Of a stretch of 64,000 bases of DNA, positions 60,108 to 61,470 are shown piece after piece. The position numbers and the translations under genes were made by a program. Each line of letters starts with the position of its first letter. Within the stretch, counting starts at the first letter, position 1. The notes under the pieces are model-generated. The model saw only the letters and a list, made by a program, of their open reading frames with translations, was not told the DNA's origin and did not search any database. Location: the NCBI GenBank assembly GCA_963848295.1, contig CAWKDB010000002.1:1120001-1184000 (forward strand), given 5' to 3'. This stretch comes from an uncultured delta proteobacterium. Lineage in GTDB: Bacteria > Myxococcota_A > Polyangia > Haliangiales > Haliangiaceae.

Positions 60108-60428
60108 TCACCGCGTGAGCCTGAACAGCATCGCGCGCACGCGATCGAGTGGCGTCTCGATGGCGGCCAAGTCCTCGGCGGTGATGTAGCCGCGTGCCCT
60201 CGCGATGAGCAGTGCGGTCGACAGCTCGCGCGCGCTGCCGAAGGCGCGGCGGAACATGTCGGGCCGATCGAGCCCGGCGCGCGCGCTCGCCTCGGCGATG
60301 TTGAGCGCAATGCTCTCGGCGGCGCGGCCGATCTCGTCGGCGAGCGACTTGCGCCGCGATCGGAGCTTCGGCTCGACCGGGGCGAGCTGTTCGAGGACGG
60401 TGAGCGATTGAGCGAGGACGTCGAGCAT
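60108..60428 (-). CDS. Four-helix-bundle protein (23S rRNA IVS protein/Avd-like)
   Basis: LADEIGRAAESIALNIAEA...FRRAFGSAREL; RBS GAAAGG. Confidence 0.88.
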   Translation of the reverse strand: MLDVLAQSLTVLEQLAPVEPKLRSRRKSLADEIGRAAESIALNIAEASARAGLDRPDMFRRAFGSARELSTALLIARARGYITAEDLAAIETPLDRVRAMLFRLTR

Positions 60429-60435
60429 GGTGTTG

Positions 60436-60664
60436 CCTTTCGTGGATGAGCGGACGCCCGATTCGCCGGGGCCGTCTCGCCCGTCGCGCCGCACTCGCGC
60501 CGGCGCCGTGACGAGCGCAGGCACAAATCTCCGCACGCGTCGGTCGATCCAACTCTGCGGCGGTCGTTCGCACGCGTCGGTGGTCTCGGCGCTCGGCGCG
60601 GTGCTGGCGCGAAGCGGCGCAGGGCGACGGCCCCGGCGAATCGGTGCGCCGCGAGCGCGAAAGG
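60436..60664 (-). ncRNA. Candidate structured 5' leader RNA, copy 1
   Basis: Perfect 19-bp arms 60458-60476/60626-60644; CCTTTCG/CGAAAGG at the ends; homologous to 60918-61140. Confidence 0.6.
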
Positions 60665-60667
60665 TGG

Positions 60668-60899
60668 CGGCATCGGCATCGGCATCGGCTGCGGCATCGG
60701 CTGCGGCTGCGGCATCGGCATCGGCTGCGGCATCGGCTGCGGCTGCGGCGACGGCTGCGGCTGCGGCGACGGCTGCGGCTGCGGCGTCGGCTGCGGCTGC
60801 GGCTGCGGCTGCGGCTGCGGCGACGGCGACGGCGGCGGCTGCGGCGACGGCGACGGCTGCGGCTGCGGCTGCGGCGACGGCGACGGCGACGGCGACGGC
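60668..60899. repeat. Hexamer array 2: ~38 x CGGCNN
   Basis: CGGCAT/CGGCTG/CGGCGA units in unbroken register. Confidence 0.9.
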
Positions 60900-60917
60900 C
60901 TTGGAACACTCGACGCT

Positions 60918-61140
60918 CCTTCGCTCGCGCCGATGGGCGGAACGTCTCTCTCGCCCTGCGCCGCTTCGCGCTTGTCCCGCGCCGAGCGCCGAGTGCGCCG
61001 GCGTGTGAGAGCGACCGCCGCGGAGTTGATCGGCCGGCGAGTGCGGTGGTCAGCGCCCGCGCTCGTCACGGGACCCGCGCGAGTGCGGCGCGACGGGCGA
61101 GAGAGAGACGTTCCTACCCATCGGCCACTCACCTCGGAGG
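60918..61140 (+). ncRNA. Candidate structured 5' leader RNA, copy 2
   Basis: Arms 60930-60950/61103-61124; CCTTCG can pair with the SD CGGAGG; shared blocks with copy 1. Confidence 0.6.
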
Positions 61141-61146
61141 ATCTTC

Positions 61147-61470
61147 ATGTCGTTCTACGCCCTCGACTTCGCCCTCGCCGTCCTGCACCAGCTCGCCCCG
61201 ATCGAGGCCAAGGTCCGCCGCACGCGCAAGTCACTCGCCGACGAGATCGTCCGCGCCGGCGAGAGCGTCGCGCTCAACCTCAGCGAAGGCCGCATGCGCA
61301 TCGGGCTCGATCGCCCCGACTTCTTTCGCCGCGCCGCCGGCAGCGCGAGCGAGCTCACCACCGCGCTGCTCATCGCGCAGGCGCGCGGCATCATCTCCGC
61401 CGAGGACTTCGCGGCGGTCGACGAGCCGCTCGACCACGTCCGCGCCATCCTCTGGCGGCTCACGCACTAG
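61147..61470 (+). CDS. Four-helix-bundle protein (paralog)
   Basis: LADEIVRAGESVALNLSEG...FRRAAGSASEL; RBS GGAGG; ~68/106 identical to 60108-60428 by hand. Confidence 0.88.
   Translation: MSFYALDFALAVLHQLAPIEAKVRRTRKSLADEIVRAGESVALNLSEGRMRIGLDRPDFFRRAAGSASELTTALLIAQARGIISAEDFAAVDEPLDHVRAILWRLTH

Follow-up and report, generated by a model that had tools for sequence, protein, structure and literature searches.

A dispersed, enzyme-less cassette of two PF05635 genes in a Haliangiaceae genome, with rod-like leaders predicted to mask ribosome sites and resembling a split sigma54-type promoter

Near the right end of the window (the whole 64,000-nucleotide stretch of DNA analysed here), two genes, A and B, lie on opposite strands, each behind a long rod-like leader. 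The observation made at positions 60108-61470 in an initial annotation of this DNA is confirmed as real, and the unit is bigger than that interval, since it also takes in the hexamer arrays at 59849-60045 and 60663-60900. In order, the cassette consists of a hexamer array, gene A, rod, array, rod, gene B and a tail, about 1.8 kb in all, with the following features (SD, Shine-Dalgarno sequence):

59832..59837, no strand: CTAGCG at the left junction, candidate target duplication, at the overlapping stops of two convergent host genes
59849..60045, plus strand: left irregular hexamer array, GGCNNC/GGATTC type, non-coding; missing at the empty site of the relative G104
60067..60090, minus strand: gene A 3' hairpin, seen in the sequence and kept in the A copies shown
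60108..60428, minus strand: gene A, four-helix-bundle protein, 106 aa from ATG (PF05635, TIGR02436)
60436..60664, minus strand: rod leader A; SD 60436-60441 pairs with 60658-60664; perfect 19-bp stem
60497..60513, minus strand: gene-facing sigma54-like box A, CGTCACG-N6-GC, with T at -24 and GC at 60500-60499; putative promoter
60550..60560, minus strand: conserved apical motif A, CCNCRNAG type, about 30 nt past the 5' arm
60589..60600, minus strand: 5'-arm partner box A, whose complement, CGGCGCG, is the source of GG
60663..60900, plus strand: central hexamer array, GGCNNC, between the leaders; length and units vary among copies
60918..61140, plus strand: rod leader B; anti-SD 60918-60923, SD 61136-61140
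60978..60989, plus strand: 5'-arm partner box B, from the alignment
61018..61028, plus strand: conserved apical motif B, from the alignment
61064..61080, plus strand: gene-facing sigma54-like box B, CGTCACG-N6-GC, with GC at 61077-61078; putative promoter
61147..61470, plus strand: gene B, four-helix-bundle protein, 107 aa (PF05635, TIGR02436, structure model)
61471..61645, plus strand: gene B 3' hairpin (61476-61495) and conserved 175-nt tail (7 of 10 B copies)
61646..61651, no strand: CTAGCG at the right junction, holding the stop of a minus-strand host gene
61650..61909, minus strand: host array encoding the Lys-Pro tail of ORF 61646-62653, outside the cassette

The two genes had been described as divergent paralogs with about 68 of 106 residues identical, and alignment gives 69 of 107 columns. 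Their proposed four-helix-bundle fold is borne out by matches to PF05635 (E 5.8e-14 and 1.5e-11) and to TIGR02436, with profile scores beyond the curated cut-off. The structure model of gene B (pLDDT 96) superposes on Xcc0516 (2GSC, TM 0.82), BT0352 (2RLD, 0.79) and Avd (4DWL, 0.81); a sequence search with gene B retrieves the structures 2GSC and 2RLD only. By analogy with homologs, the proteins may be pentamers, and they are nearly neutral (net charge +3 for A, 0 for B). Both genes are under purifying selection, dN/dS among the copies within this genome being 0.13 for 9 A genes and 0.17 for 10 B genes. Members of the PF05635 family occur in cas loci (PMC3936711), and PMC8700078 only lists PF05635-type genes.

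In all, the genome has 31 matches to PF05635. The divergent A+B pair recurs at ten loci with 90-99% protein identity (A being truncated in one of them), and beyond these ten there are one more diverged pair, one single copy and one fragment. The ten copies are dispersed between host protein-coding genes. Irregular arrays of GGCNNC type separate their A and B halves and mostly flank them too, hexamer arrays of variable length being found on both sides of all cassette copies shown. No terminal inverted repeats were found; the cassette ends are ragged and consist of arrays or of the variable tail. Of the 10 B copies, 7 have all or part of the 175-nt tract behind the gene, which is otherwise absent from the genome; in L031 a comparable stretch lies behind a homolog. 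It had been suggested that a protein gene and its structured leader spread as a unit. Spread of leader and gene together is supported, but for the pair A and B the idea has to be qualified, as their trees are incongruent (Mantel r 0.13, p 0.30 between the A and B distance matrices of the copies in this genome). Copies therefore recombine, swapping halves.

A relative that is about 89% identical (G104) lacks the cassette at the window locus and shows a clean empty site there, at which two host genes meet at overlapping stops within CTAGCG. This 6-mer is present once at the empty site and twice at the window locus, which makes it a candidate target duplication; it also occurs at the gene B stop (61467), so that microhomology is an alternative. 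The empty site also contains the array at 61650-61909, in frame, which is thus host coding sequence. The minus-strand host gene to which it belongs (61646-62653) has no Pfam match, its Lys-Pro repeat tail being built from a hexamer array of the cassette type. Eight further cassette sites were queried in G104: two are empty, two hold decayed remnants of gene A, two correspond to one junction that fuses the flanks of two cassettes, and two are uninformative. The candidate duplication of CTAGCG is seen at the window locus, the other sites being too diverged for comparison. At the fused junction (L217, G104:C854, compared with L203 and L205) one cassette's left flank runs directly into the right flank of a second, which points to a rearrangement via cassette copies. 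The insertions lie directly behind host stop codons. Contigs from four runs contain no joint that skips the cassette, but no piece that spans it either.

The cassette carries no mobility enzyme. Among its neighbours (103 ORFs scanned of 116 picked) there is one Y1 transposase, and these 103 ORFs include no recurring mobility family, nuclease or integrase beside the cassettes and no linked activator gene. Homologs were found in 25 of 41 related genomes and, with a strict cut-off and 24 candidates scored per genome, in 11 of 201 genomes across the phylum; named homolog records are mostly from Kofleriaceae or Haliangiales, and none were found in viral, plasmid or phage collections. The best reading is that the cassette is a dispersed, non-autonomous selfish element without a mobility enzyme of its own.

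Several observations touch on how such elements and their arrays may arise. In the genome G084 a transposase-like fragment, recognised by eye, adjoins one cassette copy, and cassettes (L241, L242, L244, L245, L247, L250) end repeatedly with a motif beside the arrays. We take this motif to be an IS50-like end; it is once joined to the transposase fragment, a candidate in-trans mobiliser in G084. Among 60 genomes, no relative of G084 more than 84% identical was found in which fresh target duplications could be sought. An origin of the arrays from an adenine-mutagenic or telomerase-like reverse transcriptase (RT) was rejected, no such RT being linked or found and the array units varying at all three middle positions and showing slippage runs. 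Stand-alone GGNNNC arrays were also rejected as orphan copies, most of 25 inspected by eye resembling Pro/Gly linkers in host genes.

Turning to the leaders, the three sequence blocks reported as shared between them (21, 17 and 26 nt) are found in both, as is the perfect 19-bp stem of leader A (60458-60476/60626-60644), and the 8+12-bp stem described for leader B contains a perfect 14-bp stem (60939-60952/61101-61114). Each leader folds into a rod (A, -153.3 kcal/mol, z -6.8; B, -150.1 kcal/mol, z -5.0), with 0 of 200 shuffles folding as well as the real leader in either case, and the rod ends at the SD, ahead of the ATG. The 5' end is predicted to mask the SD, as had been proposed, with a pairing of 0.99 in both leaders. 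No Rfam family matches the leaders at the gathering threshold, six weak matches all falling within the left hexamer array and none in the leaders. A dispersed MITE unlinked to the genes can also be set aside: in this genome all 24 strong leader matches found with nhmmer are gene-linked, and one match (E 0.01) is unlinked.

To this pair were added leaders of homologous genes (147 distinct genes, 68 with this leader class, 40 of them non-redundant), from which 37 were aligned, namely the two window leaders and those of 35 loci, three diverged copies of this genome being left out; no conclusion rests on alignment row L010 (genome G010). The covariation anticipated for a conserved structure is present: in 13 of the 28 pairs both partners vary, two-sided changes amount to 94 cells (versus 26 +/- 4 when shuffled and at most 28 in slid controls) and 96% of alignment cells pair, all of these counts overstating independence, as do those of mismatches, because the leaders are related by descent. 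Pairing of the SD is conserved as well, with a mean of 0.77 versus 0.44 after shuffling of the first 45 nt, and it exceeds the shuffled value in 35 of 37 leaders (under an earlier definition of the SD, pairing exceeds 0.7 in 23/37). Among 21 non-redundant leaders from outside the genus the SD lies in a hairpin in 16 but a paired box is found in only 4, which makes SD masking the deeper feature. One close homolog (L007, 64%) has no rod and sits between mirror-image arrays, and in another (L033, 52%) the apical half of the leader is gone, box included.

The gene-facing 3' arm of the rod carries CG(T/G)CAYG, with GC exactly 10 nt past GT in 37/37 leaders (36/37 by script, leader A having an earlier GCGC yet also fitting). 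The complement of the partner arm reads YGGCRNG with a spacing of 9-12 nt, and GCCGAGCGC in the 5'-arm partner box is invariant in all 37 aligned leaders. Invariant C·T and C·A oppositions are retained while the adjoining pairs co-vary. A wider set of 172 leaders includes 144 with a paired box, of which 84 are non-redundant. Among these, GC at 10 nt is found in 73/84 gene-facing arms versus 23/83 partner arms, and the gene-facing box has GT or GA in 70/84 and GG in 14/84. The -12 box is weak, with GTGC in 41, CCGC in 10 and TTGC in only 3 of the 84, and is CGGC/CCGC in the window copies.

The deltaproteobacterial sigma54 consensus is given as tGGcacg/tTGCt (PMC4641369), and sigma54 is described as strictly needing an ATP-hydrolysing activator that is normally bound at least 100 bp upstream (PMC4641369, PMC7057263). 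A GG/GC pair at exactly 10 nt on a single strand is absent from the window duplex, the gene-facing arm having GT and the partner arm having GG with a spacing of mostly 11 nt. The sigma54 spacing rule thus holds only in a fold-back hybrid of the two arms or in 14/84 homologs, whose boxes already have GG and so require no folding. One rpoN gene is present in the genome, and sites of the form YGGCAYR-N4-TTGCW lie outside coding-like ORFs in 21/21 cases (22/95 for other spacings); raw pattern counts by spacing show no enrichment at spacer 4, which emerges once coding regions are removed. The GT variant of these sites occurs once versus 21. Four distant boxed leaders have TG(G/T)CAC with TTGC or GTGC, and in one distant family the spacers on the two arms are 5 and 3 nt, i.e. 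+1 and -1. A start 12 nt after the GC (near 61090 in leader B) would yield leaders of 45-68 nt, in which the predicted pairing of the SD falls from 0.80 to 0.37. The apical motif of the rod is a possible activator site. Readings of the core as a dif/XerC, ECF-sigma or 6S-like element were rejected for mismatched spacing.

The strand on which the rod folds better can be approached from isolated mismatches, which were counted in a strand-neutral alignment of 72 leaders with the core box excluded. On the mRNA-like strand A·C outnumbers G·T (66 versus 40, similarly in a second count), C·T outnumbers G·A (62 versus 18) and C·C outnumbers G·G (37 versus 14), and 47 leaders favour the template strand versus 13 the opposite one, all of these counts being inflated by relatedness of the leaders. 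Acceptor stems of 65 tRNAs from the same genome, taken as a control, show the reversed bias (G·T 19, A·C 2). The excess of A·C over G·T suggests that the template strand is the better folder, though the bias could stem from mutation instead of folding. With RNA parameters the sense strand is more stable in only 10/37 leaders (12/37 in the shuffled control), the mean gap between strands being 7.3 kcal/mol for real and 1.7 kcal/mol for shuffled leaders. Box-less hairpins from outside the genus lean to neither strand (A·C 11, G·T 13), and the single apparent U·G column in the covariation alignment hinges on gap placement. The initial annotation had favoured a switch or ribonucleoprotein (RNP) formed by the sense-strand RNA. 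As a main reading this is not upheld, given the A·C excess with its reversal in tRNAs and given an invariant core that fits sigma54 promoter geometry instead of a sense-strand RNA motif.

Pairs of homologous genes in relatives (n=31) are convergent in 20 cases, divergent in 10 and tandem in 1, several of these pairs sharing genomes and 7 of the 10 divergent ones coming from one genome; opposite-strand pairs thus make up 30/31 in relatives, to which 11 in this genome can be added.

We tentatively propose, while rating it somewhat short of an even chance, that the rod is both an SD mask in read-through RNA and a sigma54-type promoter completed in folded template single-stranded DNA (ssDNA). Insertion behind host stops would yield read-through transcripts that fold and bury the SD, leaving the genes untranslated, and the box would be inactive while the DNA is duplex. 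A single-stranded state might arise from uptake or transfer, from a repair gap or from an intermediate of the element itself. In the folded template strand, the GG of one arm would then meet the correctly spaced CAYG-N6-GC of the other, and the transcript would begin within the rod, about 57 nt ahead of the ATG, and would be short, with a free SD. With one gene per strand, protein would be made whichever strand is exposed. The Avd-fold protein would probably oligomerise and bind nucleic acid, protecting or establishing the cassette's own strand; host or in-trans enzymes would probably integrate the cassette near gene ends and hexamer repeats, after which copies would recombine. Counting against this proposal are the weak -12 box, the dependence of sigma54 on an activator, for which the 75-nt loop offers little room and no linked gene was found, the leaders from outside the genus that keep an SD hairpin but lack the box, the 14/84 boxes that have GG without folding, the lack of enrichment at spacer 4 in raw counts and the near-neutral charge of the proteins. 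A further-reaching version, which we regard as doubtful, is that of a chromosomal selfish element that senses ssDNA through a split sigma54 promoter and is spread, transposase-free, by its Avd-fold protein, which would act on the element's single-stranded intermediate and on the hexamer arrays.

An ordinary, weak duplex sigma54 promoter served by some activator, with the 5' arm doing no more than insulate the gene by SD masking, strikes us as rather unlikely. It would accommodate the conservation of SD masking and its wider spread than that of the box, the GG of 14/84 boxes, the apical motif at a fixed distance as a possible activator site, and the position of insertions just past host stop codons, a place where read-through can be expected. 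It sits poorly with T or A at -24 in 70/84 boxes, a variant near-absent from the genome's own sites (1 versus 21), with C·T and C·A oppositions that are invariant while their neighbours co-vary, and with the template-strand bias, and it leaves the opposite-strand gene pairs unexplained.

Slightly less probable again is a sense RNA leader bound by its own Avd-like product, in translational autoregulation or as a small RNP. Avd is described as acting within an RNA-protein complex (PMC6182149), and the fold common with Avd, the covariation with conserved SD pairing, and the invariant internal loops, which might be a protein site, are what one would look for in such a system. Nevertheless, the sense strand has fewer G·T than A·C oppositions, the sense fold is the more stable in only 10/37 leaders, the apparent U·G column depends on where gaps are placed, the proteins are nearly neutral in charge and the sigma54 geometry is left unexplained.

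We think it improbable, more so than either of these, that the rod is an ssDNA recognition site for an in-trans mobilising enzyme, its likeness to sigma54 sites being due to chance. The fixed mismatches would then select the strand. Invariant mismatches and a one-strand bias are hallmarks of REPIN-, IS200/605- and attC-like sites, and dispersal without an enzyme of its own, ragged ends and the one Y1 transposase among 103 neighbours are in keeping with such a site. Against it, the rod is internal to the element and not terminal, convergent and divergent pairs both occur, no nuclease or integrase recurs beside the cassettes, and full TGGCAC-TTGC boxes are found in distant families. A palindromic repeat or MITE that is neutral and carries a passenger gene, its stems perfected by template switching, would fit the decaying remnants in G104 and the fast change of the arrays but is very improbable and already largely refuted by spacing, dN/dS and linkage, namely by the invariant unpaired positions and fixed spacings, by dN/dS of 0.13-0.17 and by a leader that is gene-linked throughout (24/24 strong matches in this genome), as well as by the lack of terminal inverted repeats.

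Under the proposed dual role of the rod, the cassette's putative activity would most resemble that of Frpo/ssi, the hairpin-reconstituted ssDNA promoters of plasmid leading regions (PMC12672017). Both have a long imperfect hairpin before a small gene, whose promoter boxes are believed to re-form once the strand folds, and by computation the template-strand hairpin of the cassette does rebuild promoter boxes. The cassette differs in having a sigma54-type box rather than the -35/-10 of Frpo, and in being chromosomal and multi-copy, with housekeeping neighbours, no plasmid match and one gene per strand.

Other known systems share parts of this design. The 23S rRNA intervening sequences (S23p; PMC4990558) encode proteins of the same family and are selfish, with short tandem repeats before the ORF and restricted translation; the cassettes, however, are dispersed between protein-coding genes and not in rRNA, and have two genes, each behind a stem rather than in its loop. 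The likeness to DGR Avd (4DWL; PMC10053308) is one of fold (TM 0.81), at 11% identity, and the cassette has no linked RT and no template or variable repeat: no RT is present among the 103 neighbours, and the genome's three RTs best match group II intron maturases.

In IS10 and IS50 the ribosome site is shielded in read-through transcripts, an internal start freeing the SD that an external transcript buries, as proposed here, whereas the cassette has neither a transposase nor terminal inverted repeats. MITEs, REPINs and mobile insertion cassettes are similarly non-autonomous, intergenic, palindromic, situated near gene ends and able to mediate rearrangement. Here, in contrast, the ends fade into hexamer arrays with one candidate 6-bp duplication, selected genes are carried and no cognate enzyme was found. 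A search of mainly non-subscription literature gave no published account of the cassette or of a sigma54 ssDNA promoter; the cassette is real, selected and apparently undescribed in print.

PF05635 genes also occur in other settings. A second family in the genome G000 (C2:271074, C2:797188, C2:436753, C10:2647165, C10:3467581, C10:4056361) has inverted hexamer arrays and terminal inverted repeats, the latter presumably resembling IS4 ends. One of its copies shows an 11-bp duplication centred on CTAG, and several have group II intron sequence inserted in them or lying next to them. Rod-less PF05635 genes (C2:797175, C8:9497 and C10:3467568 of G000; L027, L028, L029) have no SD and carry a box, SMAA-N15-SCCGAT, 6-7 nt before the start codon (7 matches), which we take to be sigma28-like; the arrangement suggests that their transcripts may be leaderless. 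In a distant family (L266, L270, L279, L287, L289) the genes are flanked by arrays (TGGCAC/TGACAC/TGTCAC)n, whose units repeat the hexamers of the -24-like box, and a simple, perfect SD hairpin serves as leader.

Apart from those in rRNA inserts and DGRs, the widespread four-helix-bundle genes of the PF05635 type lack an explanation. At this locus they are carried, under selection, by an enzyme-less cassette that has expanded repeatedly and is also party to chromosomal rearrangements, and the locus offers a one-base test of how such a gene is switched on. A promoter completed only in ssDNA is a design hitherto known only from plasmids entering new cells. If the proposed mechanism is true, ssDNA promoters would extend to a second sigma class and to chromosomes, and the rule of a distant upstream activator on duplex DNA for sigma54 would be challenged; if the element does sense ssDNA and spread by means of its own protein, this would be a first function for the very large family of stand-alone PF05635 proteins.
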